This document shows, in pieces, positions 9,838 to 63,876 of a stretch of 64,000 nucleotides of DNA (its first letter is position 1; the number at the start of each line of letters is the position of its first letter). The notes under the pieces are model-generated. The model saw only the letters and a list, made by a program, of their open reading frames with translations. It made no database searches and had not been told where the DNA came from. Origin of the DNA: an uncultured candidate division Zixibacteria bacterium (lineage in GTDB: Bacteria; Zixibacteria; MSB-5A5; GN15; FEB-12); the NCBI GenBank assembly GCA_963735035.1, contig CAVTJJ010000003.1, forward strand, positions 640,001 through 704,000. The letters run 5' to 3'. A program made the translations under genes and the position numbers.

Positions 9838-12800
9838 ATGAAATCAGCCTCTTTTCAGTTCGCCCTGGTCGGCGTCATGTTCTTCTCAGCTTTTTCGGTT
9901 CAGGGCGGACAACTCGATCCTGATCTGGTGACAACTATCCAGCAGGCGTCCCCCGACAGTCTGATAAGCGTCTGGATCGAAGTTAGGCAAGCCCCAGGCA
10001 CGGCCAGCATGAAATCGGCCGCGTCCTCAGCCGCCACTCGCGCCGAAGCCCATGCTCTCGTTTGCACTGAGTTGAGACAGCAGGCGACCGCTCAGAACAA
10101 TCTGGTAGACCATCTGAACACGCTGAAAAGTGCGGGACGGGCCGACCGCGTTAAGGGACACTGGATCGTCAATATTGTTGAGGCCGATGTCACCGCCGAA
10201 CAACTGGCTGAACTCTCCAGGCGAGACGATATCGTCAACATCTACCTCAAGCCCGTCGTGTCATCACTGGATGATTCCTCGGTCGACAACGGCGGAGCTT
10301 CGGTATCGCCCGACAGCACCACAGGCAATCTTCGCAATATCAAAGCCCCCGATGTGTGGGCGCTCGGTTATACCGGAACGGGACGAATCGTATGCAGTTT
10401 TGATACCGGCGTCAACGGCCTGCATCCGGCCCTGCACAGTCGCTGGAAAGGGAACGACGGCGATTCGGCGGCCGCCTGGTTCGACCCGGTTTTTCAACAA
10501 CCGTTCCCGCACTATGTCGCCTCGAGTCTTCAGCCGGCGCACGGCACCCATACTATGGGCATCATGGCAGGGGCTGATCCAAACACTCCCGATACGGTCG
10601 GTGTAGCCCCCGGCTCCAGGTGGATATCGGCCGCCGTGATCGATATTGCCGGTGCATCAATTCTCGATGCCTTCGAATGGGCGGCGGATCCCGACGGCAA
10701 CGCGAACACTATCGCCGACGTCCCCGATGTGATCAACCACAGTTGGGGATTCCAGAGCATTTCCTGCTTGAACATATTCTACACTGCGATCGACAACACT
10801 GAAGCCCTCGGGATTGTCAATATCTTCGCGGCTGGAAACTTCGGGACGCAGGGAGCAAGCAGCATAACTTGCCCGGCCGATCGCGCGCTTGATTCGCTGG
10901 ATTGTTTTGCGGTCGGCAATCTCAACTATTCGACTGACGTTATCGTCGCTTCGTCCTCACGTGGTCCGTCGCCGTGTAATCTCACCAAGATCAAGCCGAA
11001 CGTAGTCGCCCCCGGCAATAGCATACGCTCCTGTGCCTACAACTATCCGACCGTGAGCTATATTCCGATGAGCGGCACATCTATGGCCTCCCCGCACGTC
11101 GCCGGCCTGGTGGCGTTGCTTCGCCAGAAGAATCCTAACGCCACAGTTGATCAGATCAAAACGGCCATCTTGACCAGCACTCGCAGGGCCGTTGCCTGGG
11201 GCACTATGCCTAACAACACTTACGGTTGGGGCGAAATTGACTGTCTGGCGGCGCTAGATGCTCTCTCGGCATCCAATACCACTCCGCACATTCGCCTGTA
11301 CGATTTCGAGCACGCGGCCATCGCCCCCGGCGACACGATCTACGGCTGGGTCAGACTCCAAAACCTCGGGGCCTCTACTACCGGCGTCACCGCGATAGTA
11401 ACGAGCTCCAATCCCGCTCTCACGATCTTGGACGGTACCCTTTCGTTTGGCGATCTCAACGCAGGAACCATTGTCAGATCGATCGACTCCATCCGTGTCA
11501 TCGTGTCCGACACGGTCACCGACGGATCAGCGTTGGCGACCGACCTGGTCGTTCAGCGCGGAGTGGTGAACGATACTCTGCGGCTTTTCTTCCTGGTGGG
11601 CCAGCAACCGGTCAAGTCTATCGTGACACATACCGGCAGCCGGATAAGTTTCAGCCTCAGCGACTACGGCGTTCTCGGTTTGGGGGATGGCTCGATCTAT
11701 CCTCTCAATGGAGTTGGATTCACTTTCGATGGCGGTTCGAATGATCTTTACGAAGGCGGCTTGATGATCGGAGCCTCGTATTCCCAGGTCTCCAGCGGCG
11801 TACACACCTATCTGTTTGAACCGAACATGGACTTCAAGGTGGCGCCGAGCGGCGATATCCGGATGACCGCCCCGGGTCACGATGCCCCACAGCAGACCTT
11901 TGCCATGTTCAACGACAACGGCGCCAAATACCCGATCGGCGTTCTGGTTACTCAGGAATCGTTCTCTTACGACGCCCCCAACAACGATTTCGTGGGCCTG
12001 CGCTTTGCGATCAAGAACATTTCGGGCGCGACGTTGACCGATCTCTACGTCGGCCTCTACATGGACTGGGATATCTACAGCTTCAACTACAATGCCGGTG
12101 GATACGAAACCGACGGCGCTTTTGTCTGGCAGGCGTATAACAGCGGCACAGGACTATACAATTTCAGGGGCCTGAAACTTCTCAACGGCACTCTATCCGC
12201 GGGGGGCGCGATAGATTTTGATGTCTACCGTCAGTGGCCGCGAGTCACTTCCCCTCCATCCGGCGACGGTTACACCACCGACGAAAAATACGGATCTCTT
12301 ACCAGCGGATCCCTTTACGCCGACACCAACAAAACGGCCCGCAAGGAGATGTTTTCGATCATCGGGGCCGGACCAATCACGCTGGCCCCGGACCAGATGG
12401 ATACGGTTACTTTCGCTATTCTCGCGGCCAATACTCTCGATTCACTGCGAGACGCCGGGATGCGGGCCGAATCGGTTATGAACAACTTCGAAGATCAGGA
12501 TGGGGACGGCGTGCCTGACGTAACCGACAACTGTCTAACCATTCCGAATCCAAGCCAGGAGGACGCCGACGGCGATGGCATCGGTGATAGTTGCGACACC
12601 TGTACTGACACCGATCACGATGGGTTTGGTGATCCCGGTTTTGCCATGAATACGTGTGCGATCGACAATTGTCCGACTGTTCCGAATCCAAATCAAGAGG
12701 ACTCTAACAGTGATGGACTGGGCGATGCCTGCGACACTTTACCCAAAAACTTCTATCTCTACCAAAACTACCCGAACCCATTTAGCTTGATGACCATAAT

Positions 12801-13005
12801 CAAGTTCGATCTGCCGGAGCGAAACCGCTACAAACTGGAAATTCTCAACGTGTCCGGGCAGACCTTGTACTGTGTCGAGAGTGTGGGGCAGCCTGGTCGA
12901 ATAGCGATTCCGTGGAACGGCGACGGGTACGCCTCGGGCGCCTATTTCTATCGTGTGACCGTAGGCGGCCGCTCTTTCACCCGCAAGATGATGCTGCTGA
13001 AGTGA
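9838..13005 (+). CDS. Secreted subtilisin-family (S8) peptidase with thrombospondin type-3 repeats and a T9SS-type/FlgD-like C-terminal domain
   Basis: Catalytic triad motifs FDTG, HGTHTMG and [11 protein letters not shown]; DxDGDGxxDxCD repeats; QNYPNPF...RKMMLLK terminus; GGAG SD before 9838. Confidence 0.9.
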
Positions 13006-30709: not shown

Positions 30710-32152
30710 CTATCGAAGGAGAATCATCTTTCTGGTGTCGGAGAAATCGCCAATCTTGAGACGATAGAAGTAGATTCCGGTCGCAGCCGGTTTGCCGTTT
30801 GAATCAGTACCGTCCCAGATCGCTTGATACGTTCCTGTCCGGCGAAACGCATCTACCAGCGTTACCACCTTCCGACCCAGAATGTCAAATACGGCCAGGT
30901 TCACCCGACCACTTTGGGCTAGATCGTACTTTATTTGGGTGTCGGGATTGAAAGGATTGGGGCTGTTCTGGGCCAGCCTGAACTCAACCGGCAGTGGGGA
31001 AGTGGAATCGTCTTCCACGTCGCTGGCGTTTCCCTGATTCATGTAGACCAGGAGGTCATTTGAAGTTCTGTTGGCGACCGCCAGATCATCATATGTGTCG
31101 TGGTCAAAATCGGCGGTGCACAGCGACGCCGGTGAGTCGCCGGCGGCATACTGTATCGGCTCTGCAAAAGTCGCATCCCCGATGTTGAGCAGGATCGACA
31201 GGCTATCGGTCATCCAATTGGCTACGATGATATCGATATCCCCGTCCTTGTCAAGATCACTCGTGAAGGTAGCCAGTGGATATCCGCCGGAATTATAGTA
31301 GACCGTGGGCTGGAAAGTCCCATCGCCATCGTTGAGAATAACCGAAATTACCGACTGATCATAGGCATCCGAGTTCGGCGCTATCAAATCGATATCTCCA
31401 TCCCCGTCGAGATCCGCCGCCGATATGTCCGAAGGCATATAGTGCGACGCATAGTCTACGTGCGAGGAAAACGATCCGCTCCCGTTGTTCAGCAGAACCG
31501 ACACCGTATGAGCCTCAACGTTTACCACCGCCAGGTCAAGGCTGCCGTTGCCGTCGAGATCCACCGCCACGCTCTTTTGCGGACTGTAACCAGTTCCGAA
31601 GGAAACGCGGGGTTGAAAAGTCCCGTCGCCATTGTTGAACATCACCGAAACTGAGTCATCCATGAAAGGAAGAGTTACTTGTTCATTGGTTGCCACCAGA
31701 TCGGGCCAGGTATCGCCGTCCAGGTCGGCCAGACGCACGGACGTCGGCGAAGTCCCGGCGGCAATAGTACTGGGAGCTGCGAAAGTACCGTCGCCATTGT
31801 TGAGAAACAGCGAAATACTATTATCGAGTTTGTTCGAGACTGCCAGATCGATATCGTCATCGCCGTCGACGTCGGCTCCATGCACATAGACAGGAAGGTT
31901 TCCGGTAAGATAAGTGGCGTTTAGTACGAATGTCCCACTGCCGGAGTTAAGAAGTACGGTCAGGCTATCGGTTTGATAGCTGACCGTTGCCATATCTGCA
32001 TAGCCATCGCCGTCGAAATCAGCGCAGAACACCGACCACGGACTTCCACCGATTACGTACTGAGTGGGGTCCTCCAGATGGCCACTTTGGGCCATTACCA
32101 TTCCGCAAGGAATGAAGAAGAGACCGAATATGACAAATGCGCTTCTCAGCAT
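30710..32152 (-). CDS. Secreted FG-GAP/VCBS-repeat beta-propeller with a FlgD/T9SS-type C-terminal domain
   Basis: About seven AD(L/F)DGDG..DLAV.N repeats; QNSPNPFNP...WDG.D..G...RKMILLR terminus. Confidence 0.9.
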   Translation of the reverse strand: MLRSAFVIFGLFFIPCGMVMAQSGHLEDPTQYVIGGSPWSVFCADFDGDGYADMATVSYQTDSLTVLLNSGSGTFVLNATYLTGNLPVYVHGADVDGDDDIDLAVSNKLDNSISLFLNNGDGTFAAPSTIAAGTSPTSVRLADLDGDTWPDLVATNEQVTLPFMDDSVSVMFNNGDGTFQPRVSFGTGYSPQKSVAVDLDGNGSLDLAVVNVEAHTVSVLLNNGSGSFSSHVDYASHYMPSDISAADLDGDGDIDLIAPNSDAYDQSVISVILNDGDGTFQPTVYYNSGGYPLATFTSDLDKDGDIDIIVANWMTDSLSILLNIGDATFAEPIQYAAGDSPASLCTADFDHDTYDDLAVANRTSNDLLVYMNQGNASDVEDDSTSPLPVEFRLAQNSPNPFNPDTQIKYDLAQSGRVNLAVFDILGRKVVTLVDAFRRTGTYQAIWDGTDSNGKPAATGIYFYRLKIGDFSDTRKMILLR

Positions 32153-46496: not shown

Positions 46497-49400
46497 TCAA
46501 TTCTGCACTATCGATTCCACTGACCGATTCATATTCACTCTATAATATAGAATCGGCACCGCCACCCGGCTGATCAGAAGCGAAGCCACTTCACCGGCCA
46601 TCAACGCAATCGCCAGACCCTGAAAGATCGGATCGAACAAGATCACAGTTGCACCCACAATCACAGCGCCCGCCGTCAACAGCATCGGCCGGAACCTCAC
46701 CGCACCGGCATCGATAACAGCGTCCGCCAACGGCATTCCTTCGCGCAGACGTAGTTCGATGAAATCAACCAATATGATCGAGTTGCGGATAACAATCCCG
46801 GCGCCGGCCATGAAACCTATCATAGACGTTGCCGTGAAGAACGCCCCGAAAGCCCCATGGGCCGGCATGATACCGATCAACGAGAACGGAATTGCGGCCA
46901 TGACTACGATCGGCGTCACCATCGAGCGGAACCAGCCCACCATCAGAATGTAGATTAGAATCAGCACGGCCATGAAAGCCACACCCAGATCGCGGAAGAC
47001 TTCGAGCGTAATGTGCCACTCGCCGTCCCACTTGAGCGACGGTTCGAGCGTGGTTGTCGGGAGCGAAGCATTTAGGATGTTCAGTTTAGCATCGCTGCCA
47101 CCGAAATCCCGCATGTCGAGCTGTTTGAGCTTCTCGTTCATACTCTGGATGGCATACACCGGACTCTCGATTTCACCCGCGACATCGCCAATGACATACG
47201 TTACCGGCATCAGGTTCTTGCGGTAGATCGTCTTGTCGGCCACCCGCTCTTCGACCCGCACCAGTTCCGAGAGCGGCACCAGCGGCGGGGCGTATTCCTT
47301 GCCGGCCGACCGGGCATCGGCCGCGCGAACTTGCAGGCCGAGGAGATCATTGGATGACGTCTTTAGCGAACGCGGGAGCTCCAGCACCAGAGCAACATCC
47401 TCGCGTTCATTCGAGCGATGGGCGATGTCGACCTGAATGCCCGTTACAGCCAGACGTAGTGTCTGTGCGATCGTCTCAGCGCTGATACCATGCAGCGCCG
47501 CCTTTTCATGATCGATTACAAACGTAAATTCCCGTTGATCCGCTTCGAGATAAGTATCCACGTCGACCACACCCGGGGTCGATTTGAAGATCTCGCGTAT
47601 TTTCGACGCCAGAGCCGTGCGCGATTCGGTCGTGGGGCCATAGACTTCGGCGACAAGAGTCTGCAGTACCGGCGGGCCGGGGGGTACTTCGGCCACCGCC
47701 ACACGAGCCCCGAACCGTTTGGCCACTTCCTGCACTTCAGGCCGCACCCGCTTCGCAATATCGTGGCTCTGCGCCGAGCGTTCCCCCTTGGATAGCAGGT
47801 TCACCTGGATGTCGGCGACATTCGCCCCCCGCCGCATGAAATAGTGCCGCACCAGGCCGTTGAAATTGTACGGCGCCGACGTACCGGCGTAAATCTGATA
47901 ATCGGTGACTTCCGGTTCTCTGGCAATCGATCCGGATATCTCACGCGCCGCCTCGACCGTCTGCTCGAGCGACGACCCCTCGGGCATATTTATGATCACT
48001 TGAAATTCGTTCTTGTTGTCGAACGGCAACATCTTCACCTGCACCCAGCCGATCCACACGAGACCGAGCGCCACCGCCAGTGCTGCCGTAATTGAGATCA
48101 AGAACGTTCGCCGCTTTCTGGCGTCTCGAATGAGGCCGTTCATCAGACGACGATAGAGGCGGGTTGAGTATCCTTCTTTCGTCTCGCCATGTGCGGCCAG
48201 GTTTGACCCACCTTTCCAAGCGAGCACGCGTACCGCCGCCCACGGGGTTACCATGAAGGCTACTACGAGCGAGAAGAGCATCGCCGCGGTGGCTCCAATC
48301 GGAATCGGCCGCATGTACGGCCCCATCAGGCCGCCTACGAATGCCATCGGAAGAACCGCCGCTATCACTGCCCAGGTGGCAAGAATAGTCGGGTTGCCCA
48401 CTTCAGAAACCGCCTCAATCGCCACCTCGCTCCAGGGCCGTCCACTATTGCGCGCAAGATGCAGATGGCGAGTGATGTTCTCGATCACGACGATGGCGTC
48501 ATCCACGAGGATGCCGATTGAAAAGATCAGCGCAAAGAGGGTGATCCGATTGAGCGTGAAACCGGTCAGATAGAACACCAACAGAGTCAGAGCCAGGGTG
48601 GACGGAATAGCCAGCGCCACAATTATCGATTCCCGCCAGCCGAGACTGATCATGATCAGCAGCGACACGCTAACCACCGCAAGCAACATGTGCAGTAGCA
48701 GTTCATTCGACTTCTCAGCGGCCGTCTCCCCATAATTGCGAGTGATAGTAATATCGACATCTGACGGAATCAGTTTCCCTCTGAGTTTGGTCACACGGTC
48801 GATAACTTCGTCGGCCACATCGATAGCATTCGTGCCCGGACGCTTGGCGATAGAGAGCGTCACGGCTGCTTCGTCTTCATGCTTCTTTCCCGATGCTGCC
48901 CCAGAGCCATAAACCACCACCTGATTCAACTCTTCAGGGCCATCAACTACCTTGGCAACGTCGCGGAGATATACGGGAGCGCCGTCGTAGACTCCGAGCA
49001 CGACCCGCTCGACATCGCTAACGTCGCGCAGGAATCCCCCGGTCTCGACAATTATCTCCTGATTGTTGCGGATCAGGTTACCAGCCTTCGACTGTCGATT
49101 CGCCTGTTGCAGGATTGGAATAAGCGTGACCGGATCAAGATGCCGCGCAGATAGTGCCACCGGATCGAGCTGAATGCGATACTGCCGCCGGAGCCCCCCG
49201 ATCATGTTCGTTTCAGAGACGTCCTTGACCTGCTTGATGTGCTCTTCGACTTCAGCCACCACGCGTCTTAGAAAGTAGTGATCCTCCGTCTTACTGTGGA
49301 AAGTCAGCGCGAGGATCGGAACGTCGTCGATGGAACGCGATTTCAATAGCGGAAACGACACCTGCGGTGGAATGCGATCGAAATTGGATTGCAGTTTCTG

Positions 49401-49766
49401 GTTGAGTTTGACAAGGCTGCGCTCGACATCCTCACCTACCTTGAAACGAACTATGACCAGAGCTTCTTCCGGTCGTGAGATAGAATAGACATACTCCACG
49501 CCGGGAACTTCCCACACCAGCTTCTCCATCGGAGCCGCCACCCGATGTTCCACTTCCTCGGCATTGAAACCGGGCACGGACACCATCACGTCCACCATCG
49601 GGACCTTGATCTGCGGCTCTTCTTCCCGAGGCAGAAGCGTCACAGCCAAAGCGCCAAGCAGCACCGAAGCCATAATGAATAGCGGAGTGAGCTTCGAATT
49701 GACAAATGATCTTGCCAGCAATCCGGCCAGACCTTGCGATTTCGGGTCGGTATCGGAATTCATCAT
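46497..49766 (-). CDS. RND efflux permease subunit (AcrB/CusA superfamily)
   Basis: [33 protein letters not shown] and RFRPMLLT motifs. Confidence 0.93.
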
Positions 49767-50788
49767 AGCGCCACCCTGACCGAATCACCGTCCGAGAGAT
49801 CGCGCTGTCCTTCAACAACGACACGTTCGTTCTCCCTAAGCCCGGCGAGGATTTCCAGCCGGTCCGGAAACTGCCGCCCGATTCTGACCAGTCGCAACGC
49901 CGCCCTCTGGTTGTCGCCAACGACATATACCAAGTCCAACTGACCGCGCTGGACAAGAGCGTTACGCGGAATGAAAATCGTCTGATCTCCCGCGGCCACG
50001 AGTTGCAGCCTACCGAACTGCCCCGGTCGGATTGCAGCCATAGCCGGGATGGCGACCTTGGCGGTAAACGTCCGGCTGACCGGATCAGCGCTGGGGGAAA
50101 GTTCGATCACCTGCCCCTTGACGACGGTGTCAATTGAAGTCAGGGCCACGATGGCGCTGTCGCCGACCGAGACCTGACCCATCTTTGACTCTGGAAGCGC
50201 CGCCTCGAATCTCAGATGTCCCGACTCTTCCAATGTAAATAAGGGACGACCCGGCACTGCCAGATCACCGACATCAATCAATTTCTCGGTCACGCTGCCG
50301 TCAAACGGAGCCTCGATCCGGGCGTAGCTCAGATATGTCCGGGCTTCGCTCAGTGACGCCTCAGCCACCGCTTTGCGCGCCTTGACCGCATCGAACTCCT
50401 GTTGCGTAGCAGCCCGCTCCGCCAATAACGCTTCAAACCGGGTCAGATCGCTGGCCGTCTGCTGATAGACAGCCTCAGCTTGCTCTACTCTGGCCTGGTA
50501 CTCGCGGACATCCAACTCGGCCAGCAGATCACCGGCTTTCACGACACTGCCGAGCGTGACAGGGATTCGTTCGACCCGCGCCTGAATCTTGGATTCGATA
50601 CCAGCTCGATTGCGCGCGACTACCGTCCCCATGAATTCTTCGCGTGACGATTCGGCCACTCTCTGAGCGGTCGCCACCGTAACTTCCTTGGGAGTCTCCC
50701 CGGATCGGTCGGCTTGATGTGCGCGATCACCACACGAGGTCAGGACAAGCGAGCTCAGTGCAGACAACATGAACGATTTTTGCAACAT
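49763..50788 (-). CDS. RND periplasmic adaptor (MFP), lipoprotein
   Basis: Lipobox LTSC; G..VKAGDLL, I.APFDG.V and RPGQFG motifs. Confidence 0.92.
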
Positions 50789-50857
50789 CTGTATCTCTCC
50801 AATTATTGGCGGCAAGGTGCCTCTGCCCGGCTCGTTACCGGACAGGGCGACTTCTAA

Positions 50858-53109: not shown

Positions 53110-54841
53110 TCAGAATCGTCGGGTCAACATGAGACGACCGGCCGCCTCGTTGAATTGTGAGGCCTTGGCCCCGCCGCGATTGTGGGTCGATTCCATTTCC
53201 GCGGAAAGTGTCAAGTCGCGGCCGAGAGGATAAGCGAACCTGAGGCTCGGACGAATGGTAGTATTTACGTTGCCGACCGCCACCGCTACCGTTGCTGACG
53301 ACGTCAGCTTCCCGTTGAGCCCGAGATGTCTCGCCGACGCCGAGTAGTTCTGCGTAAATGTTCGCTTACCGGTGCCAATCTGGGTGCTCATCAACCCGGC
53401 CGTAGCCACGGTTTCGAGATTTCGACTTATCGCAATTGTCCCACTCGAAGTGGCCGAGTGCGACTCAAGATCGGAGCTTTGACGAAGCGGGTTCTGATCT
53501 CCCGAAGTCTGAAAGGTGTAGTCGAACGAAAGACTTCTCAATCCGAAACTGCGGTTGAACGAGAAATAGTGGCCTGTGCGCAGCACCCAGCTCGAGAAAT
53601 CGACTCGTCGCACATTCTCCGAAGCATCATTGCTTACTCCGGTGAATATGATTCCCAGCGTGGCGTTCCAGCGAGGACGCAGACGGTGGCTGACCATCGC
53701 GCTCAACCGGGTGCGGTCGGTCGTACTTGATTTCTGGTCAATCAGATTGTCGCTCTGAAGGGCACCGTCGATCTTTACCATGCCTCCCCGATGTCTCGCC
53801 ATGACACCGACCGTGACCTCGCGTTTGTCGGCAATCATCGAGGCGAGTCCAAGCGAAATATATCCGGGGCCGATATAGTGATATCCCGCGCTCACGGTTA
53901 CTTTAGAAATGTCCATACTAATGTCAGTGGTATAAGCATAATCCGCCCGAGTACTCACCCGGGGCGTAAAGATCTTCTTCAGCGATTCCGGGATGTCGGA
54001 GCTTTCCGGTTCAGCGGAACGGCGGTCCCGCGTCAGCGCGCTCACCCCGGCTTCATTGCGCCACCGAAACTTCCTCTTGAACAGCGCCAGATTCGTGACT
54101 GCCGAAACAACCAGATTCTCCTGTGGTGTGACCGACACCGGGTTCTGCTCGGCATCCGAAAACAACGTGTCAGTCACCGACACCGTATCGTGCACATCGG
54201 CAATCGATGACAGCTTGTCCTTGGCGCTGACGAAGTACAGATCGAACCCGGTCCCCCCCTCGCGACCCACGCCGAGCCGCCCTCCGGTGATCTGACGTTC
54301 GTAGGTTCGATTATTGTCCGTGCTGGATACCGACCGTCGCGTCAAACCGGTAATGAACGTTACTTTCATCGCACCCGGCGTCAACAACACCCCGCCCCCT
54401 CGTACCTGCACGCCCCCCATCGTCAGCGGCGTCAAGGCTCTCGCTAAAGTCGCCCAGGTGCGCCTGTCCCCAACGCCACTTGGGATTGAAATCGAGTTGA
54501 TTTATCTGCTGACGCGCCGAATTTCCTTCGGTGGATAACATCACATTGAAATTGGCCGACATGCTGTTCCAGGCGGTCAGGGTCGAGCGAAGATACAGCC
54601 GTCCGGTGCTCTTGGGGCGACGAGCCTCGATACCGGACATGCTGTACAGCTCGCCGAATGTACCAAGCTCACCCTTCAATACGAAAGCCCTGCTCGATCC
54701 GGTCGAACTCGACGACTCCGATTGTGCATTGTCAGACGTCTGAGCCTGAGCGCCCGCCAGGACAGGCATAAAACAAGGCAGGACGATCAGGGCGAGTAGT
54801 ATGAAACGAATATATCGCTTGTGGCAAGCCATGCAGAGCAT
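53110..54841 (-). CDS. Predicted outer-membrane beta-barrel protein, split by a single-base frameshift near 54434-54437
   Basis: Signal peptide in the 5' ORF; the junction reads GDFSESL|TPLTMGG after removing one base (576 aa); amphipathic strands and a terminal Phe. Confidence 0.7.
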
Positions 54842-54847
54842 CCTCGG

Positions 54848-56935
54848 TTAGTCGTACAAGAATGAGACCTCAGCACTCCGGTCGCTTTCAGCGCCGGACT
54901 GATCGACACACGAAACCGAATAGTAATACCGCTCGCCCGCCTTGGCGGAGGCATCGCGATATTCCGTCACGCCCATTGGGACAATCGTCGGTGTAACCGA
55001 CGCGGCGGCATCCTGCTCACCGTGGCGATAGACCCGGTACCCGGCAACCGAAGACTGGTACGTCTTATCCCAATATATTTTGAGCGCCGTTCCCTCGCGG
55101 GTGACTCGTACTCCCCCGGGTGGAAGGGGCACAGCCTCAAAGGCAAAGATGCGAACATTGTGTGACCAGGCCCCAGCGACCTGAGACGTGTTAATCGACT
55201 GGATTCGATACTGATAGGCCGTGCCTTTGCGTACTGTGCTGTCGGTGAACTCACCAGCTTCCCGTCCCAGCGGAACGGTCGTGATCTTTTCCCATTTGAG
55301 ACTGTCACCGTCGAGGGCGCGATAGACATTGTACCCTGAAATCATATTGTCATCAAGGCGCGCCCAAAACAGCCTGGCGCCTGAAACATCGTAGTAACCA
55401 AAGAACGAAGCTGGTGCGCCGGTGGCTTCCTGCTTTTCCGGAGCGGTCGCGGCCGGAAGCGAATATTGACTCGTAATACCCGTGTAGTTGATCGCTTGCG
55501 CCAGATACCAGTATTGACCCCGGGACGACAGATATGCGCTCGTATCGAGATATTCGGTTGTGTCCCTGCCGATCAGCGGCGAGACCTGACTCAACTCGCC
55601 GTTATAGCTGTCGGCGCGAAAGACATAGTATCCTTGGACGTCTACCTCATCGGACTTCACCCACTGTACCCGGATGCCGTTCGTGCGGGACTCCACTTTC
55701 ACGCCCTGCGGCGGAACAGGCGGGAGATAGTTCCCAAACAGCGACACCGAGCGGGGCGATTTCTCCGATTCATTTCCCGCCCGGTCAATCGCGGTCACCC
55801 GATAGAAGTACCGGTCGCTCAGGGTCGTGGACTTATCCTCGTAGTATCCGGTGTCGGCTGGGAGTATCACCGCATTCAAACGCACATAATTGCTGTCGGC
55901 GTCCAGACTTCGATACAGGTTATAACCCGCTACATCGGCGGCTGCAACTTTGTCCCAGGTTACTGTGATTCCGAGATCCGACGGATTCGCAAAGACATTC
56001 TGAGGAATAGGCGGGGCGACTATGTCGGCGCGATTCCAAATCAACTGCGGCGTGCGCGGGCTTTCGTTTCCGGCGAAGTCGACTGAAACCACTGAATAGT
56101 AATAGGTGCGACCCACCTGAGCCGTCGTGTCGATGAACGTCCCGTGCTCCGTCGATCCGCTCTCGTCCGGAAGATATGCCAGTGGCGAACGGTTCAGGCA
56201 TAGATATGCGCCGTTCGAATCGGGGCAACGATACACGGAATAGGTCAGAGCTCCAGAGTCGGCCGGATTTGCGTCCCAAGTAATTTCTATTCCGTTGTCT
56301 TTCGACTTGCCGCCGACCTCGATCGGGCCCACCAGCGGCAGCGACGGGACACCGAAAGTCGCCTGCTGCGGTTCGCTCGGCGCTGATTCCCTTCCGTTCG
56401 CATCCACCATGGTCGCCCGGTATTGATACGTCTTGCCGCGTTCTAGTTTGTTGTCCCAGACGAGCAGCCCAATCGCCTTGCGGAAGTTCTTGCTCAGCAG
56501 AGTCAGCGCCAGGACACTTGAATCGTTATGTTCGATACGTTGCCACAATTCCAGTTTCGAATTGAGCCCGGCGAACTTCTCGAATCCGTCGATAGATCCG
56601 CCCATGGCTTGTTCCAACTCAGCCAACGTGCCAGGACGTGAAATCGGCGCGGAGGTAACTCGAACAAATCCAGTGTCGCCCTGAACCCGACGATAGATAT
56701 GATACCCCACCCAACCGCCGTTATCGGCGGCGCTGTTCGGATGAAGCGTCGGTCCGCCTATGACCAGCAGCATCCCGTTCGGTCCGGACAGGGGAACGAC
56801 CACGAACGACGCCTCAACTTGCGCCAGGCACGGTGCAGCAAGACAGAGCGACGCCAGCACGAGAATCAGCAGCAGTCCAACCGTGGGCCGCGAGAGTGTG
56901 ATCTGATATTGGTAACTCATCTCAATCATCCTCAT
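54848..56935 (-). CDS. Secreted fibronectin type III repeat protein
   Basis: Signal peptide; about six W...GY.(I/V)YR...Y.Y.V.A.D..G.ES repeats. Confidence 0.88.
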   Translation of the reverse strand: MRMIEMSYQYQITLSRPTVGLLLILVLASLCLAAPCLAQVEASFVVVPLSGPNGMLLVIGGPTLHPNSAADNGGWVGYHIYRRVQGDTGFVRVTSAPISRPGTLAELEQAMGGSIDGFEKFAGLNSKLELWQRIEHNDSSVLALTLLSKNFRKAIGLLVWDNKLERGKTYQYRATMVDANGRESAPSEPQQATFGVPSLPLVGPIEVGGKSKDNGIEITWDANPADSGALTYSVYRCPDSNGAYLCLNRSPLAYLPDESGSTEHGTFIDTTAQVGRTYYYSVVSVDFAGNESPRTPQLIWNRADIVAPPIPQNVFANPSDLGITVTWDKVAAADVAGYNLYRSLDADSNYVRLNAVILPADTGYYEDKSTTLSDRYFYRVTAIDRAGNESEKSPRSVSLFGNYLPPVPPQGVKVESRTNGIRVQWVKSDEVDVQGYYVFRADSYNGELSQVSPLIGRDTTEYLDTSAYLSSRGQYWYLAQAINYTGITSQYSLPAATAPEKQEATGAPASFFGYYDVSGARLFWARLDDNMISGYNVYRALDGDSLKWEKITTVPLGREAGEFTDSTVRKGTAYQYRIQSINTSQVAGAWSHNVRIFAFEAVPLPPGGVRVTREGTALKIYWDKTYQSSVAGYRVYRHGEQDAAASVTPTIVPMGVTEYRDASAKAGERYYYSVSCVDQSGAESDRSAEVSFLYD

Positions 56936-56947
56936 TTCCGATTCCCG

Positions 56948-59900
56948 TTAGAAACTGACATCGACGTTCAAGCCGCGCTTGTTGCTGTACTCGACCGCTG
57001 CGTTCATACCGATACATCCCTTGGCGCCGGTCGGTAGCGCAAACACACAGGCGCCGAATATGCGGCAGTAGCATTTCCAGCAGATCGACCAGCAGCCCGC
57101 GTTGGGACATGAGCCGATCGTGCCTTCGAGACTGAAGCTGCCGTTCGCCCCGGCTGCGACTTCGTCATCGCGAACTGTCACGTTCGCCCCGAGAGCAAAC
57201 CGACCGCGCGCCTCGATCAGGTCGAGCGAGAATAGGCCGAGATCGAAGCCGATCCAGGCATAGGCGCTACCCGACATTTGGATCGACCCTGTCACCCCGT
57301 GGTTCCAGTCGATATCGAGTTTCGCGCGCTGCTCCAGATTCAGACCGAACTTGATGACATACCAGTTGGCGTTGTAACCAAACGAACTGCCCACTTCGAT
57401 ATAGATGCCGGTCATTAAACGGGTCTGGCCGTTGTATTGCCATTCCCAGTTGTTGGCGATGACGATTATGCCATCGGCCTTGATAATCTCAATTACGTTG
57501 AGATTGGCCCGGCCGTAGATGTACCAGTAGCGGCCGAACTGAACGCCCAGATCAAGCTGTGCCGATGCCTTCGCCGCCTTGAAGTCCATGGCGAAGACGA
57601 TCGAGCCGGTGACTCTCTCTTCCGGTATGTTGATTTCGAATGTGGCGCGACCGACATTCATGTCGCCGCCCACCTGGACGTTGGCATTGCCCAGGATGAT
57701 GACACCTTTGGGCGTCTTCTGGACTTCAACCAGGATGTCGAGCTTGATCCCCTTGTCCGCCTTGGCCGGCGCTACAATGCCACCGAGGCTGAACTTCCAC
57801 GTATCATCCTTGCGCCCGATGCCACCCGAGGCCTGGACAATTTCAGCCGGACCGATCGGGATTCTCGTGCCCGAGATGATCCGCACCCACCAGTCGGTCG
57901 AGCCACCATAGCGGAACTCCGCTCCAGCGCTGAAGACCGGCCTTACCGCCAACAGCCCCTTCCCCTCGAATACACCGTCGGCGTACGAAACGCGAATGTC
58001 CACACTGGCGGGACCCGCCACGAAACCGAGTGCTATCTCGCGGAACGTTACCGCTCCGTCGAAATAGAATCTTAGGTCGCTCGCCTGCACGTTCAGACCG
58101 TTGATGGCGCCGAACTTCACCCCGCCTGTCAAGCCGATAAACTGTTCCGTCCGGGACGAATCGTAACCGAGCTCAATTGACTCAAGTGTGAGGGTGACTA
58201 CATTCTTGAATGATACCGACTGATTGAACTCCAGCTTGCCGGTGAACCTGCCCTTTTCGGAGTAGCGAAGCTTCATCCCCACCGGCTTGTCGAGAGCGGT
58301 AACTGTGAGCTTGCCCGCGAAGGCGAAATACTTGGTGTGCTCGAGCGTCGTCGACTCGAAGTTCTCAGTGCCAAACTCGAGCGACTCGATCTGGAATTTC
58401 TGGCCGTGGACGTTAATCGTGCCGTTCTTTTCGTCGGCTGTGAGCGTCAGACTGAGGAACTCGCCCTCGGGAGAGATACGCAGATCCTTGAAACCGTACT
58501 CCCGGTTGTCCAGCGCGTTGAGCACGATTGCACCGCTCGCCCGGAACCCGGTCGCCTCCCAGCTCATCGAGCTGTCGACAACAGTAAAGACGCCGAATGG
58601 GATCTTGATCGCGGGCTCAGTCTTGAGGGTGACCGACTTAAGCGTGATCTCGCCGTCGGTGTCGCGACCGATCAGCATCTCCTCAAAACCAACCTTGAAC
58701 TTGGAGCCGAACTCGATTGATCCGAACAGATGCAGGCCGGCCGTATCAACACAACTCTTCGTGTAATCCAGGCCGAGCTTCACCGACTTGATCTGGACCT
58801 GGACTTCCTTGTTGGTCACCGTGATGCCGTACTTGCTCAGGCCACGGTTGACACCACCCGCCCAGAACGACGGCGCATACGACTTCGGAATCTTGAAATC
58901 TATGAACTTCGTCTCGGGAAGGATCTTCGAGATCGGGTCTTTGATCGTCACATCACCGCAGATGCGCCCGGCCTTGACCGAATCCACCCATTCCAGTCGC
59001 AGACCGCCGTCGAACGACATGGAGCCTTCGACCCCAAAGATGTTGATATCAACGGAGGACGTTGTCAGCTTGACCGTATCCGACACCGGACGATAATTTG
59101 ACCCCACTTCCAGGGCGGCGAAATTGAGCGACGTGCCCGGATTCTTCAGTTGGACGCCAAATGTGGCCGGAACATCGATCAGCGCTCCCCAGGCTTTGTT
59201 CTTTCCGTCCGATCCCGCTTGTATCGAATCGAGTGCCACTGCGAAACCGAAGAGCGAATCCATCGGCGACGGTTCCATTTCGATCGCCAGCCCGGTGACC
59301 TTCGCCCCCGCTTCGATACGCTTATCGTGTTTGAGTCGCGCCGTCTTAAACCCGGCTTTACGTGCTATCAGAGTGACCGACTCGCCGGTCGGGACGTTGC
59401 GAAGTTTGAAGACACCATTCAGATCGGTGGTCGCGGTTACTTTATCGTTGCCTTCAATCGTAATCGCTACTTTTTCAATCGGGAGGCCGCCCTCCTTCGC
59501 CTTGACCGTTCCCTCGATCCGCGCCGCCGGCGCCAACTCCACAATCACCGGCGCAGCGTTCAATCCCGGGTAAACGGTCACCTGGGACTCGACCGCCTCA
59601 TAGTCCTGAGCGTAGCTGTCATCCGACGGAGGCATCACCTTGAGCTTTTGCTGCCCGGTCGGAGCCTCGTCAAAATAGGCCACGCCGTCCGCATCGGTGG
59701 TAACCGGGACCGTGTCACCCAGTGTGACCTTCATGTCCTTCAGCCGCTTATCCGCGCTGCCCTTCTCTACGACCCGCACGAACACCTGCCCGATACTTCG
59801 AGCAATGGTCACGGATACCTTCAGCGTATCATTGGCGGTAACTACGACCGTCGTGTCGAGATCGGCGTAACCCAATTTGCGCAACTGCAGATGCACGCTG

Positions 59901-62647
59901 TCGGCAATCGCATCCGAGATCTGCAGCAAGCCATCTTTATTGGTGAAGCCGATAAGCGACGGTATCTCCGGCGATTTGACGCAAACGTCGCTGACACCCT
60001 TCTTATCCTTGTTCGTAACATTCAGCGAGATGAATCCCTTGGCGGCGCTGAGTTCCTCGTCGCGCTGGAACCGGTCACCGTAGTTGACGGCGAACTCCCC
60101 AGTGATTAGAGTAGCGCATCCGGTCTTGGAGAACTTAATGCGATAGACACCGGGCATGAGATTCGCGAAACTGTAGGCGCCGTCGCCCCCCGATTCCATC
60201 CATCCCGCACTGAGATTCCAGGCGGTCCGTCCGTCCGGAAGGGAGTCGATGCGATTCAACTGAACCCGCACACCGCTGAGCTGAGTGCCGGCGGAACTGG
60301 TTACGCGTCCAAAGATAATACCGCCTACCCGGGTCAGTCCGAAATTGACCGTATCAACTTCGTTCTCGGCGTCGATCCGATCCCCCTTTGTAGCCGAGCC
60401 GTAACCCTGGGCCTCGACCCAGACCAAATATCGCTCGGTTACTTGTTCGGGATCATTGATCGGAACATTCGCCAGAGCATAGTTGCCGGTCTGATCGGTC
60501 TGATACATATCGAGCGGCTCGCCGGCCGGCTTCTGATTGGCGGTATTACCCCAGGTCGTATCGACTACCGGAGCCGATCCTCCGCCCGCCGATTCACCCT
60601 CGCCGGAACCGAGCGAGCTCTTCGAATTGCCGGAGCCTCCACCGGACCCCTGATTGCCACTCCGCTGCCGTCGCGTGGCCGGATAGAGATAAACGCTCGC
60701 CCCCTCGACCGGCAGACTGTCGCACAACACACGGCCTACTATACTCCCCGCCTTCGGCTGCAGTAGATGCTCACCCGTATCAGTGGTCTCTCCCGCCGCG
60801 AGCGTAATCGACTCGGGTGACGTATACGGTCTGTAGCGAGCGTCGTTTACAACAATCTTATAGGAATAGCTGAGCGGCGCGGAAGTTGTTACCAGCATCG
60901 GGAGTCTGGCGTTCCCCACATTCATGTACTGGACTTTTACAGTTGCCGCTTTTTCCTGGCTGATCCCCAGAAGGCGGAAGAGTCCACCTCCGTCAGTGTA
61001 CGCGGTCTGTTGGCAGTCGACCGTGATCTCCTGTTGGACCGATCCAACGGTTGCACCCCATAGCTTGGTGGTGATCTGAACCGTTGCGGTGCGCGACAAC
61101 TGCACCAGCGCCCGAGGCACCGGCTTGTAGGTTCCCGCCACGATCGACTTGACCACACCGGTGATAACGCCGGCATTTGGCTTGATCAGGAAGATGTACT
61201 GGTCGATATCTCCCTGTTGGCGCTGATCCGGTCCGATGTCCACCGCCGGGAGATACGACGGCGATTTCTCGGCGCGCAGACTGAAATACGACGAATCCGC
61301 CGCCTGCAGGAATTCGAAACGACCCTCCGCGTCGGTTGTGGCAACCAGCACCTTGCGAGCGACCTCGACATATTGGAACTGGGCGCCGCCGGATGAATCC
61401 GACGTGCGCACTACGTCGACCGCATGGTAAGTCACCGGCGCGTTGGCTACCGGCTCATTACTGAAGAAATCTTTCAACACACCCGCGAGGCGACGGGTCC
61501 CCGGCGAAGCATAGGCAAGACGAACGGTCTTGTTTCTGACATCGCCGTCTTGATACTGCTCCCGCCCGCTCAGAAGCAGGGTGGTGTAATCCTTCCGGCT
61601 GATTTCGAGCGTGTAGAAGCTCTTGTTATAGGCGGAGTCGATTCGGAATGCCCCGGTCGGCCCGGTATAACAAACCGTTGAATCTTCGCCCGCCGTCCAG
61701 GTCGTATCTCCGGCGCTGATGCTTCGAGAGATAGGACGATACACCAGTCGTGCGGAATCCAGCGGGCGGCCGTTTTCGGCGTCAAGCACCTGTCCGGCCA
61801 GCGTGCGAAGTTCCACCGGTGTTGTTGTATCGGCGTCAAACCGGAATGACCAGATCTCACTGCGACCGTCATTGGTCGACGGCGGGTACCCCTTAGAATC
61901 CAATACCTGCACCTGCCAGGCGTACGTGCGATCCTTTACGAATGCCTGAGCATAAATCGGATACTGCAGGCTGGGGTTGCCAATATTCTTGTCTTCAAAT
62001 TGTGGCACATCGGCGGCCAGCGCCTGTGCGGCCGTCTGTCCGGGCAAGACCTCGGCCATCCGAAGATTGTAGTGCACTCCGAAACCTGCTGGAACTTGCA
62101 CCGGCGTCCACTGAAACACCGGAAACTTGCTTAGGACCGCCTCGCCATCGGTGGGATATACCAGATAGGGCGGATCGGGATAGACAATCGTGAATTCAGC
62201 ACACTTGTTGTCGGCCAGGATCGTTCCGTTCTCATCCTCGATCCGAAGACAAGCTTGATAGGTTCCTTCGGGCAGACGTCCCGTGCGAATTGCTATATCT
62301 TCAATGTCGTTGTTGTACTCAATCGAGGGGTCATCGATGATATCGCGGGTCGTGATATTGGACGACGGTCCCGGCGGAAAGTCGAGCATTTTGCTGTTGG
62401 CGCTGGCAATCTGCTGACTTCCTCGGCTGACTGTAAGGTATATGCGCACATGGACCGTATCAGCCAACGGGTTCACAATTAGGGCCTGACCAATACCGGC
62501 GTTGTTCTCCCAATCCGTGAGATATGGCGACGGGTAAGGATCGAATATGAGCGTGGCTTCCCAGCCCCCTTGGGCCAACGTGGAAGACGCTATAAGAAAT
62601 ATGAGCAGGCACAGAAAGAGTGCGCGCAACCTGCCAGCATTACTCAT
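56948..62647 (-). CDS. Giant secreted protein: TANFOR-like/Ig N-terminus, carboxypeptidase-regulatory-like repeats, long beta-rich C-terminus
   Basis: Signal peptide; PYPSPYL.DW, LPEG.Y..C and PP.LVYP.DG..P.FQWTP motifs; repeated G.V......(V/I)..A.V....TD..G.F units; AGGAG SD. Confidence 0.8.
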   Translation of the reverse strand: MSNAGRLRALFLCLLIFLIASSTLAQGGWEATLIFDPYPSPYLTDWENNAGIGQALIVNPLADTVHVRIYLTVSRGSQQIASANSKMLDFPPGPSSNITTRDIIDDPSIEYNNDIEDIAIRTGRLPEGTYQACLRIEDENGTILADNKCAEFTIVYPDPPYLVYPTDGEAVLSKFPVFQWTPVQVPAGFGVHYNLRMAEVLPGQTAAQALAADVPQFEDKNIGNPSLQYPIYAQAFVKDRTYAWQVQVLDSKGYPPSTNDGRSEIWSFRFDADTTTPVELRTLAGQVLDAENGRPLDSARLVYRPISRSISAGDTTWTAGEDSTVCYTGPTGAFRIDSAYNKSFYTLEISRKDYTTLLLSGREQYQDGDVRNKTVRLAYASPGTRRLAGVLKDFFSNEPVANAPVTYHAVDVVRTSDSSGGAQFQYVEVARKVLVATTDAEGRFEFLQAADSSYFSLRAEKSPSYLPAVDIGPDQRQQGDIDQYIFLIKPNAGVITGVVKSIVAGTYKPVPRALVQLSRTATVQITTKLWGATVGSVQQEITVDCQQTAYTDGGGLFRLLGISQEKAATVKVQYMNVGNARLPMLVTTSAPLSYSYKIVVNDARYRPYTSPESITLAAGETTDTGEHLLQPKAGSIVGRVLCDSLPVEGASVYLYPATRRQRSGNQGSGGGSGNSKSSLGSGEGESAGGGSAPVVDTTWGNTANQKPAGEPLDMYQTDQTGNYALANVPINDPEQVTERYLVWVEAQGYGSATKGDRIDAENEVDTVNFGLTRVGGIIFGRVTSSAGTQLSGVRVQLNRIDSLPDGRTAWNLSAGWMESGGDGAYSFANLMPGVYRIKFSKTGCATLITGEFAVNYGDRFQRDEELSAAKGFISLNVTNKDKKGVSDVCVKSPEIPSLIGFTNKDGLLQISDAIADSVHLQLRKLGYADLDTTVVVTANDTLKVSVTIARSIGQVFVRVVEKGSADKRLKDMKVTLGDTVPVTTDADGVAYFDEAPTGQQKLKVMPPSDDSYAQDYEAVESQVTVYPGLNAAPVIVELAPAARIEGTVKAKEGGLPIEKVAITIEGNDKVTATTDLNGVFKLRNVPTGESVTLIARKAGFKTARLKHDKRIEAGAKVTGLAIEMEPSPMDSLFGFAVALDSIQAGSDGKNKAWGALIDVPATFGVQLKNPGTSLNFAALEVGSNYRPVSDTVKLTTSSVDINIFGVEGSMSFDGGLRLEWVDSVKAGRICGDVTIKDPISKILPETKFIDFKIPKSYAPSFWAGGVNRGLSKYGITVTNKEVQVQIKSVKLGLDYTKSCVDTAGLHLFGSIEFGSKFKVGFEEMLIGRDTDGEITLKSVTLKTEPAIKIPFGVFTVVDSSMSWEATGFRASGAIVLNALDNREYGFKDLRISPEGEFLSLTLTADEKNGTINVHGQKFQIESLEFGTENFESTTLEHTKYFAFAGKLTVTALDKPVGMKLRYSEKGRFTGKLEFNQSVSFKNVVTLTLESIELGYDSSRTEQFIGLTGGVKFGAINGLNVQASDLRFYFDGAVTFREIALGFVAGPASVDIRVSYADGVFEGKGLLAVRPVFSAGAEFRYGGSTDWWVRIISGTRIPIGPAEIVQASGGIGRKDDTWKFSLGGIVAPAKADKGIKLDILVEVQKTPKGVIILGNANVQVGGDMNVGRATFEINIPEERVTGSIVFAMDFKAAKASAQLDLGVQFGRYWYIYGRANLNVIEIIKADGIIVIANNWEWQYNGQTRLMTGIYIEVGSSFGYNANWYVIKFGLNLEQRAKLDIDWNHGVTGSIQMSGSAYAWIGFDLGLFSLDLIEARGRFALGANVTVRDDEVAAGANGSFSLEGTIGSCPNAGCWSICWKCYCRIFGACVFALPTGAKGCIGMNAAVEYSNKRGLNVDVSF

Positions 62648-62791
62648 GACCGGTACTCCTTTCGCAGGGCCGATCAGTCTGATTTCAGAAAGCTTGGCGG
62701 AGATCGGGCCTGGGAAGCAGAATCTGTTATGTCATGGATAATATTGGCAACTAACTCAATGCAGTCAATAATAATACAGTGGATGATACTA

Positions 62792-62807
62792 TGCGAAGGT
62801 TGTGCCA
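62792..62807 (-). promoter_or_regulatory. Putative sigma54 -24/-12 promoter
   Basis: Minus strand reads TGGCACAACCTTCGCA (GG-N10-GC), 145 bp upstream of the giant gene. Confidence 0.65.
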
Positions 62808-63042: not shown

Positions 63043-63876
63043 CTATTTCTTCGCTTTGGCTTGCCATTCCGCAATCAACGGCTCGGCCTGTTTGAGTTGT
63101 TCCTTGGTCAGTTTCTTGCCCAGTTCTACGCATCTCTCCGAATAGGCCTGTTTCTGCTCCAGATTCCAGAAACGGTCTAGCGATGCCGAGTAGAGAGCAT
63201 ATGCCAGAACACTGTCCAGCGGCACGCCCCTGCCGTCGAGATAGCAGTGGCCAAGTCCCCAGATACAATCGGCATCGCCCAGTTCGGCCCCTTTGCGGAA
63301 CCACTTTATCGCCTCTGAATTATCCTGCTCAATTCCCATACCCAAGGAATTCATCATAGCCAGGTGTTGGACGGCCTCCGTATGATTTTGTTCGGCCGCC
63401 AGCCGATACCATTTCATTGCTTCGACCGGATCGGCCTTCACACCGCCCGGGATTCTTTCGCCGGCCTCATATACTAGCCCCACGCTAAACTGACAGTCAG
63501 CGTTTCCCTTTTCCGCGCCGGTTTTCCAATAGTCTATGGCTCGTGGTAAATCCTCCTTGACGCCAGCGGTGTTTGCATAAATGAACCCCAGGTCATACCA
63601 AGCCTGAGTCTTGCCGGCATCTGCGGCCTTTTGCAGCCAATGCAATGCTTCCGTCGCGCCAGAATCAGTGCCCTGTTCGGGAATCAGTTTTTCCCCGAGT
63701 TGAAGCATGGCGTCGGCATTGCCGCCGTTCGCCAGCGTCTTCACTTGCTCCATCGACATGGCCGAGTCGATAACCGGTGAATCATCTGCGGCGGTCGCGA
63801 CTGCCACCAGACTCAACACCAGCGATACGGCCAGTGCGGTTCTCCTGATTCGCGATCCTGTCCGTTTCATAATCAT
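63043..63876 (-). CDS. Secreted Sel1-repeat protein
   Basis: Signal peptide; repeated A...LG..Y..G.GV..D...A..W...AA..G units. Confidence 0.92.
   Translation of the reverse strand: MIMKRTGSRIRRTALAVSLVLSLVAVATAADDSPVIDSAMSMEQVKTLANGGNADAMLQLGEKLIPEQGTDSGATEALHWLQKAADAGKTQAWYDLGFIYANTAGVKEDLPRAIDYWKTGAEKGNADCQFSVGLVYEAGERIPGGVKADPVEAMKWYRLAAEQNHTEAVQHLAMMNSLGMGIEQDNSEAIKWFRKGAELGDADCIWGLGHCYLDGRGVPLDSVLAYALYSASLDRFWNLEQKQAYSERCVELGKKLTKEQLKQAEPLIAEWQAKAKK

Follow-up and report, generated by a model that had tools for sequence, protein, structure and literature searches.

The question raised by this locus is whether three closely spaced genes for secreted proteins make up a dedicated machine of the cell envelope and, if so, whether that machine is already known under another name. 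The genes lie within a stretch of 64,000 nt from a candidate division Zixibacteria bacterium (GCA_963735035.1, contig CAVTJJ010000003.1, positions 640,001-704,000; referred to below as the window), and they encode a giant protein, a protein with FN3 repeats, and a member of an outer-membrane barrel family. A reading of this DNA made from its letters alone (the sequence-only reading) had proposed an uncharacterized export or surface-display system in which the barrel is the pore, the FN3 protein a scaffold, and the giant the substrate or a filament. We consider that the locus is probably the Zixibacteria version of an envelope module of the Fibrobacteres-Chlorobi-Bacteroidetes (FCB) group, which would serve the barrel-anchored export or display of giant proteins.

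The gene layout described in that reading is borne out by the coordinates of the open reading frames (ORFs): the two upstream genes (1899 and 695 amino acids, aa) are intact and co-oriented, the gap between the giant and FN3 genes is 12 bp, and the gap between the FN3 and barrel genes is 6 bp with the barrel start at 54841. The N-termini of all three proteins look like Sec-type signal peptides when judged by eye, as had also been claimed. The giant can be divided into an N-terminal head, a stalk of repeats, and a C-terminal domain (Table 1).

The trio is co-conserved across genomes, which agrees with its presentation as a unit in the sequence-only reading. The barrel was found in 19 of 151 sampled genomes of the window's phylum (counting G000), representing 9 of 88 genera. 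A scan of the genome collection gave 10 loci, and six Zixibacteria loci among them keep the order giant-FN3-barrel (L009, L011, L012, L013, L014, and L015, the last of which is cut by a contig end). The other four comprise one locus that begins inside the barrel gene, one variant, and two from metagenome-assembled genomes labeled Bacteroidetes, where the order is barrel, head-bearing giant, FN3. A second sample consisted of 301 genomes of the phylum that holds locus L017. Profile matches to the barrel were obtained in 107 of these genomes and to the head in 88; when strong matches are counted, the barrel is present in 52 genomes, the head in 52, and both in 49. A strong head match lies within 3 kb of 53 of the 70 strong barrel matches and within 15 kb of 61 of them, and, seen from the other side, a barrel match lies within 15 kb of 61 of the 78 strong head matches. 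Eighteen loci of this second phylum were chosen by the barrel match alone; a head-bearing ORF adjoins the barrel in 17 of them (the exception is L027), and in 12 of the 18 a gene for a homolog of the FN3 protein adjoins the giant. In this phylum, barrel-giant-FN3 is the usual order and giant-FN3-barrel occurs sometimes, as observed for the window, where the barrel homolog likewise lies beside a head-bearing giant and an FN3-repeat protein.

Two further arrangements were seen in the course of this survey. A distant paralogous pair, neither member of which has a Pfam family, occurs at L037:403-5137 and in many second-phylum genomes; it consists of a protein of ~400 aa, which matches only the Ig-like second half of the head, beside a protein of ~910-930 aa, whose matches (E 1e-7 to 1e-11) cover portions of the barrel profile. 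A second head-bearing protein of 1514 aa, without Pfam matches, is encoded in divergent orientation just upstream of the cassette in genome G025 (L006:13756-18300), and it is 41% identical over aa 12-277 of the giant.

The barrel family has no Pfam or NCBIfam model (Pfam was run on all 28 members), and its profile had no match among the sequences of the PDB. Its fold was modeled on the closest intact ortholog, P0023 (28 sequences), rather than on the broken gene of the window; P0023 is 65% and 71% identical to the two pieces of the window's barrel. The model has 26 strands (pLDDT 83.7, pTM 0.71) and lacks a plug, a POTRA domain, or any periplasmic domain, so the expectation that the third gene folds as a barrel holds for its intact ortholog. 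MtrB (6r2q_B) is the best match to this model both in Foldseek (E 2.2e-9, TM-score 0.54) and in VIA-align (Z 21.6, root-mean-square deviation [rmsd] 4.3 Å over 440 residues, the next match having Z 16.4), and LptD is not among the best 50 VIA matches. No Pfam match to POTRA, ShlB, Bac_surface_Ag, or a TonB-dependent receptor or plug was found in the 28 family members. The sequence-only reading had noted that the hallmarks of the type V secretion system and of two-partner secretion (TPS) are missing, and the Pfam searches, with no POTRA or TPS match, agree with it.

A physical association of barrel and giant is supported by complex prediction. The pair used was that of the L014 orthologs, namely barrel aa 30-567 (alignment of 37 rows) and head aa 26-272 (19 rows). 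Three runs gave ipSAE values of 0.89, 0.89, and 0.88, versus 0.00 for the best of three controls, with 238-269 contacts and a partner pLDDT of at least 84 in each run. The same mark was attained by 116 of 157 solved complexes and by 2 of 215 mismatched pairs, counts that are only rough because our own alignments were used. Once placed on the P0023 model with its 26 strands, the 92 confident interface residues of the barrel divide equally between the long loops (45) and the upper strand halves (45), apart from 2 in the lower strand halves; the short turns have none. All 13 long loops take part in the contacts, as do nearly all strands through every other residue. The QK of the best-conserved loop motif, DNLIxQKxxTT, touches the invariant PEG of the head, and the Q, the K, and three neighbors are invariant in the 28-row alignment (A4), though not in the 37-row alignment (A7). 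In outer-membrane proteins (OMPs), the long loops are usually extracellular, and the termini and short turns are periplasmic. Because the interface is on the long-loop side, which would face outward by this rule, the head is predicted to lie in the outer vestibule of the barrel and to cork it, leaving the inner half of the lumen free. This model supports the binding of head and barrel without showing it. The assignment of the barrel as pore and of the giant as substrate therefore stands in so far as the barrel is predicted to bind the giant; a head seated in the vestibule would be an anchor or a cork rather than a substrate passing through a pore.

The module would thus consist of a wide, plug-less 26-strand outer-membrane barrel, a Sec-exported giant, and an FN3 rod of ~700 aa. 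Because the head (the first ~250 mature residues) is predicted to fill the barrel vestibule on the long-loop side, the barrel would be the dedicated outer-membrane partner of the giant, which it would let reach the surface and then retain by the head. The ~8 transthyretin-like domains of the stalk, together with the 775-aa beta domain, would extend away from the cell as a tip that is adhesive or acts on contact. The FN3-repeat character of the 695-aa protein, claimed earlier, is upheld by an intact ORF and an fn3 match in Pfam (E 7.9e-14); no single segment stands out in the conservation of a 16-sequence alignment. We infer that this conserved third partner probably works from the periplasmic side; the results lend no support to the scaffold role proposed for it in the sequence-only reading. 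A bolder version of the proposal, which we regard as doubtful, is that barrel, head, and FN3 protein represent an unrecognized export-and-anchoring pathway of the FCB group, the missing route for giants and toxins with the TANFOR domain (described below). The barrel would then be an MtrCAB-like sheath, its outer half corked by the head and entered from below by the FN3 rod; with the two partners meeting inside the barrel, signals or force could therefore cross the outer membrane.

Several points weigh against the barrel-anchored module. Its support consists wholly of sequence and prediction. The cassette is patchy, the barrel being found in 4 of 40 relatives of the window's genome and in neither of two genomes of the same genus (one of them 77% complete), and 6 of the 18 second-phylum loci have no FN3 homolog in the DNA fetched. 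The predicted complex is that of the L014 pair, which is 45-58% identical to the window's proteins, and not that of the window's broken barrel. The orientation comes from the general rule for OMPs, not from data on this barrel family. The model of the C-terminal domain is uncertain (pTM 0.43), and the giant may carry a membrane domain of its own. Finally, the module is disrupted in the window's genome and in two others (G006 and G138).

The disruption in the window affects the barrel gene. The third coding region (53110-54841) measures 1732 nt, which is no multiple of 3, and it reads as two overlapping ORFs of 176 and 441 aa in different frames; the two pieces together align across the full length of the intact homologs. 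The claim of a 576-aa barrel ending in Phe is therefore right about the end (...RRF) but not about the gene, which is frameshifted and not a single ORF. The reading frame switches at DFSESL/TPLTMGG, and because the homologs read DFTENYTPLTLNG there, one extra base must lie within 54433-54437. A search of 5.8 billion clusters gave 27 barrel homologs, 26 of which are single proteins of 545-700 aa; the remaining homolog, of 333 aa, is a fragment from a contig of 1 kb. Programmed frameshifting was rejected because the break occurs in the window's copy alone. Neither a second barrel copy nor a second head-bearing gene was found when the window's genome was searched. The insertion, which is known from the assembly alone, is either a real inactivation or an assembly error at that base, and the module is possibly inactive in this genome.

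The cassette might be a decaying relic here, with a real frameshift, no barrel made, and no current function of the trio, an alternative that is compatible with the other readings and to which we give appreciable, though not the greater, weight. The insertion splits the only barrel copy of the genome, the two same-genus genomes have no barrel match, and other carriers show a nonsense codon (G006) and a split copy (G138). On the other hand, the giant and FN3 genes have kept open frames over their whole length, as would not be expected had decay gone on for long, and a single-base consensus error is possible in this assembly of six contigs. In the G006 giant, an in-frame TAG (L012:6125-6127) stands at the position of a Ser of the window's protein (GLHFFG-stop-VTF versus GLHLFGSIEF), so that the giant appears in the ORF list in two parts (1306 and 560 aa). 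In G138, a highly contiguous Zixibacteria genome, it is a second barrel copy (G138:C6:228268-229852) that reads in two frames; its split falls at profile positions 277-280 and differs in position from the break in the window's barrel.

The head is the part of the giant that is predicted to contact the barrel. It is common to 35 large proteins of 1289-3157 aa and aligns across two phyla. Among the head-bearing proteins is P0064 (2048 aa) of Ignavibacterium album, a cultivable organism. When 42 head-bearing giants were checked, 18 gave no match to the C-terminal domain of the window's protein, and the head is therefore the constant part. The label "TANFOR-like" given to this region by the sequence-only reading is weakly supported for the window's own protein: the head scored 14.6 bits (E 0.022) with TIGR02542, against a curated cut-off of 67, and the whole giant gave nothing at E ≤ 0.1. 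The head does match P0070, a protein named in its source as a TANFOR-domain protein (E 8e-17), and P0070 in turn matches TIGR02542 at E 3.6e-8 (33.4 bits, below the cut-off). TANFOR matches above the cut-off were found in none of 5 and none of 301 genomes, and 4 of 8 sub-threshold matches in the 301 genomes lie within ~12 kb of a barrel match on the same contig. These intermediate sequences suggest a remote kinship between the head and the TANFOR domain found in polymorphic toxins of Bacteroidetes.

This apparent kinship gives some room to a second alternative, a two-partner-like secretion with release, in which the barrel would be a transient translocon that recognizes the head, much as TpsB does the TPS domain, and the giant would be released or delivered to neighboring cells in the manner of the TANFOR toxins instead of being retained as a surface anchor. 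The constancy of the head beside a variable remainder, the 18 giants without this C-terminal domain, and the apparent remote TANFOR link all suit it, and TANFOR proteins are described as bearing variable C-terminal toxins in the portion of the literature used here (PMC7073777). However, the predicted interface (238-269 contacts) is large, fills the vestibule, and looks stable, and the window's giant has no recognizable toxin domain and no immunity-like gene after it. We therefore judge release to be unlikely.

The remainder of the giant was examined by profiles and by modeling. CarboxypepD_reg is matched at E 6.2e-31 (Pfam), and an iterative profile finds seven repeats plus one more that is interrupted by a Gly/Ser stretch at aa 661-697, which confirms the earlier count of roughly eight. 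The same reading had placed a Gly/Ser linker ahead of about 750 aa of beta pattern; ~775 C-terminal residues are indeed modeled as all-beta, but the Gly/Ser stretch lies inside the repeat region. The C-terminal domain has no sequence match in Pfam (run on 18 giants), NCBIfam, or the PDB (searched with the domain profile), and the giant itself had no match among PDB sequences. Its profile finds 72 representative clusters in 1.84 billion proteins, and the head is also present on 34 of the 38 newly found C-terminal-domain proteins of at least 1500 aa. The AlphaFold2 model is an all-beta meander of long hairpins (pLDDT 75.7, pTM 0.43). Fold searches with it (Foldseek and VIA) returned outer-membrane barrels, LptD and MtrB first, together with Rhs/DDB1-type beta proteins; the matches are weak (TM-score 0.03-0.18; VIA rmsd 12-31 Å for barrels), and one non-barrel match, an OspA variant, has an rmsd of 8.1 Å (VIA). 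We describe the domain as a predicted barrel-like beta architecture of uncertain topology and leave the fold unnamed. The giant ends in ...VDVSF, which resembles a beta-signal. Among 19 full-length close members, the last residue after the alternating motif is F in 12, W in 3, I in 3, and L in 1, a pattern resembling the beta-signal of the BAM machinery.

These features bear on a third alternative, namely an envelope bridge of the LptD/TamB/AsmA type, in which lipid or polymer would be transferred by way of a groove or barrel made from the beta-rich C-terminus of the giant, with the product of the third gene as its outer-membrane partner. LptD chains are the top Foldseek matches to the C-terminal model (E 1.4e-7, probability 1.0), a TamAB hybrid-barrel entry is among the VIA matches (Z 9.8), and the beta-signal-like end points the same way. 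Yet the TM-score to LptD is 0.10-0.17 with an rmsd above 20 Å, none of 18 family members matches AsmA, TamB, DUF490, or OstA in Pfam, and it is the N-terminal head, not the C-terminal domain, that co-varies with the barrel; we regard such a bridge as improbable. Neither AsmA nor DUF490 (TamB) nor DUF6603 is matched by any of the 18 at E ≤ 1 (Pfam), and DUF6603 appeared only as a lead from the ESM Atlas (0.88, carried by 23% of that cluster).

Still less credit is due to a nutrient-capture gate, in which a diffusion barrel would have the head as its lid, like SusD on SusC, and the repeats would bind substrate. In the predicted complex, the head does cap the barrel's outer mouth, and SusC-type transporters likewise carry CarboxypepD_reg domains at their N-termini; against this, the barrel family has no match to TonB-dependent receptors or plugs, and no genes for glycan or peptide utilization are conserved around the cassette. 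Least probable, to the point of being negligible, is an MtrCAB-like porin-cytochrome electron conduit: MtrB is the best structural match of the barrel and both systems have three parts, but membership is refuted by the lack of any haem-binding partner, with CxxCH absent from the giant, from the FN3 protein, and from the mature part of the barrel (a single CMACH occurs in the barrel's signal peptide), and there is no Pfam match to MtrB/PioB.

Table 1. Features of the three-gene cassette (window coordinates).
Feature	Coordinates	Strand	Remarks
Two overlapping promoter-like sites upstream of the giant	62740..62797	-	consensus match only
Giant protein gene	56948..62647	-	1899 aa, intact ORF; orthologs 1874-1950 aa
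Giant's signal peptide, aa 1-25, cleaved near ...TLA/QGG	62573..62647	-	read by eye
Head, aa 26-275, two-domain N-terminal module: TANFOR-like beta-sandwich plus Ig/FN3-like domain	61823..62572	-	
Stalk, ~8 CarboxypepD_reg/transthyretin-like repeats, aa 281-1122	59282..61807	-	Pfam and iterative profile
Gly/Ser-rich insert inside one repeat, aa 661-697	60557..60667	-	sequence
C-terminal all-beta domain, aa 1125-1899	56951..59275	-	AlphaFold2 model; no Pfam family
Cys-rich stretch, 7 Cys, aa 1847-1878 of the giant	57008..57115	-	most Cys invariant in alignments
FN3-repeat protein gene, 695 aa, with signal peptide	54848..56935	-	intact ORF
Barrel gene, 5' piece, 176 aa: signal peptide and first strands	54311..54841	-	homologous part stops near 54436
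One-base insertion (frameshift) relative to all homologs	54433..54437	-	alignment to homologs
Barrel gene, 3' piece, 441 aa, end ...LTRRF	53110..54435	-	alignment to homologs

The flanks of the cassette vary from locus to locus. In the window, the giant gene is preceded on its own strand, across a gap of 395 bp, by a gene for a 277-aa Sel1-repeat protein (63043-63876), which was not seen next to the cassette in the other loci. Near the cassette there is also a resistance-nodulation-division (RND) efflux pair with one AcrB-like and one HlyD-like member, at 46497-50815 of the window and at L008:14379-18524; because neither the side nor the strand is the same in G006 as in the window, its proximity is probably a coincidence, and it was rejected as a part of the cassette. 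C-terminal type IX secretion system (T9SS) sorting domains are present elsewhere in the window, at 12769-12993 in a 1107-aa subtilase and at 30722-30961 in a 499-aa FG-GAP protein, and these two are presumably the "NxPNPF" domain of the sequence-only reading. That reading had found no such domain on the trio, and we agree: the trio has no Pfam or NCBIfam match to it, and none of the 48 Por_Secre_tail matches in the genome falls within 53110-62647.

How does the module compare with known systems? Bacteroidetes TANFOR proteins were described as polymorphic toxins with Sec signals and variable C-terminal toxins (Jana, Salomon, and Bosis, 2020; PMC7073777). Of nine papers that contain the word TANFOR, this one alone appears to study the domain. 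In the parts of that paper on which we draw, Fn3 domains are enriched in TANFOR gene neighborhoods (Table 1 there), and the export route is left open, with T9SS as a speculation and no barrel partner named. The window's giant is like these toxins in its size, its Sec-type export, its constant N-terminal module followed by an FN3-like domain, and the FN3 genes nearby, as far as that account extends; it is unlike them in having no toxin domain (Pfam, NCBIfam) and no immunity gene, the FN3 protein and the barrel being encoded downstream instead. Because the head appears to be distant kin of the TANFOR domain in polymorphic toxins already described, the trio is not entirely without precedent. The proposal of an uncharacterized, dedicated export or display system thus stands as regards co-conservation, the barrel fold, and the missing hallmarks of type V secretion, TPS, and T9SS cargo, but the head appears to have a precedent in TANFOR.

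In Supplemental Data 1 of the same paper, as far as its rows were covered, a PKD-repeat lipoprotein of ~450 aa precedes canonical TANFOR genes in 13 of 15 rows; in 12 of those 13, a protein of 745-801 aa without a conserved-domain match follows the TANFOR gene, and in one further row the following protein (754 aa) has only a provisional PRK03918 match. The ~745-801-aa proteins of these rows may be equivalents of the barrel. Because the barrel has no domain model, it could not surface in the domain-enrichment analysis described there. A family with no Pfam or NCBIfam model escapes surveys of this kind in general, and this one stands almost always beside the constant head of the giants. The barrel is thus a concrete and testable candidate for the export route of TANFOR-type giants, in a module now extended to Zixibacteria.

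We know of no use of type V two-partner secretion for giant surface proteins in Bacteroidota and its sister phyla. The module resembles the TPS systems (TpsB/TpsA, CdiB/CdiA) in that a dedicated barrel lies beside a giant exoprotein with a conserved N-terminus of ~250 aa and a variable remainder. It differs in that the window's barrel would have 26 strands and no POTRA domain, whereas the TPS barrel has the 16-strand Omp85 fold; the head is a beta-sandwich plus an Ig-like domain, not the TPS beta-helix, and there is a third, FN3 partner. Neither the giant nor 18 relatives gave a Pfam match to the TPS (haemagglutination activity) domain, and the searches revealed no sequence kinship to TPS systems.

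With MtrCAB (MtrB, PDB 6r2q) the module shares the fold of a 26-strand sheath barrel, the number of three genes, and a partner inside or on the barrel; it differs in having no multihaem cytochromes and no MtrB/PioB match, and in an Ig-like head that is predicted to enter from the long-loop side. The LptD-LptE plug-and-barrel is similar in that another protein sits within a 26-strand barrel, and LptD heads the Foldseek list for the C-terminal model of the giant; no OstA, LptD, or LptE match was found in the families of the trio (Pfam), and cargo and context differ.

Judged by the tests that define each of them, the module is not TPS, T9SS cargo, MtrCAB, AsmA/TamB, or, formally, TANFOR, and it is probably not LptDE. 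Our literature searches brought up no description of the barrel or of its pairing with the head. By analogy, its workings would come closest to those of a plug-and-barrel complex to which the logic of two-partner secretion is added, and the head would be a third kind of occupant of a 26-strand barrel, after LptE and MtrA.

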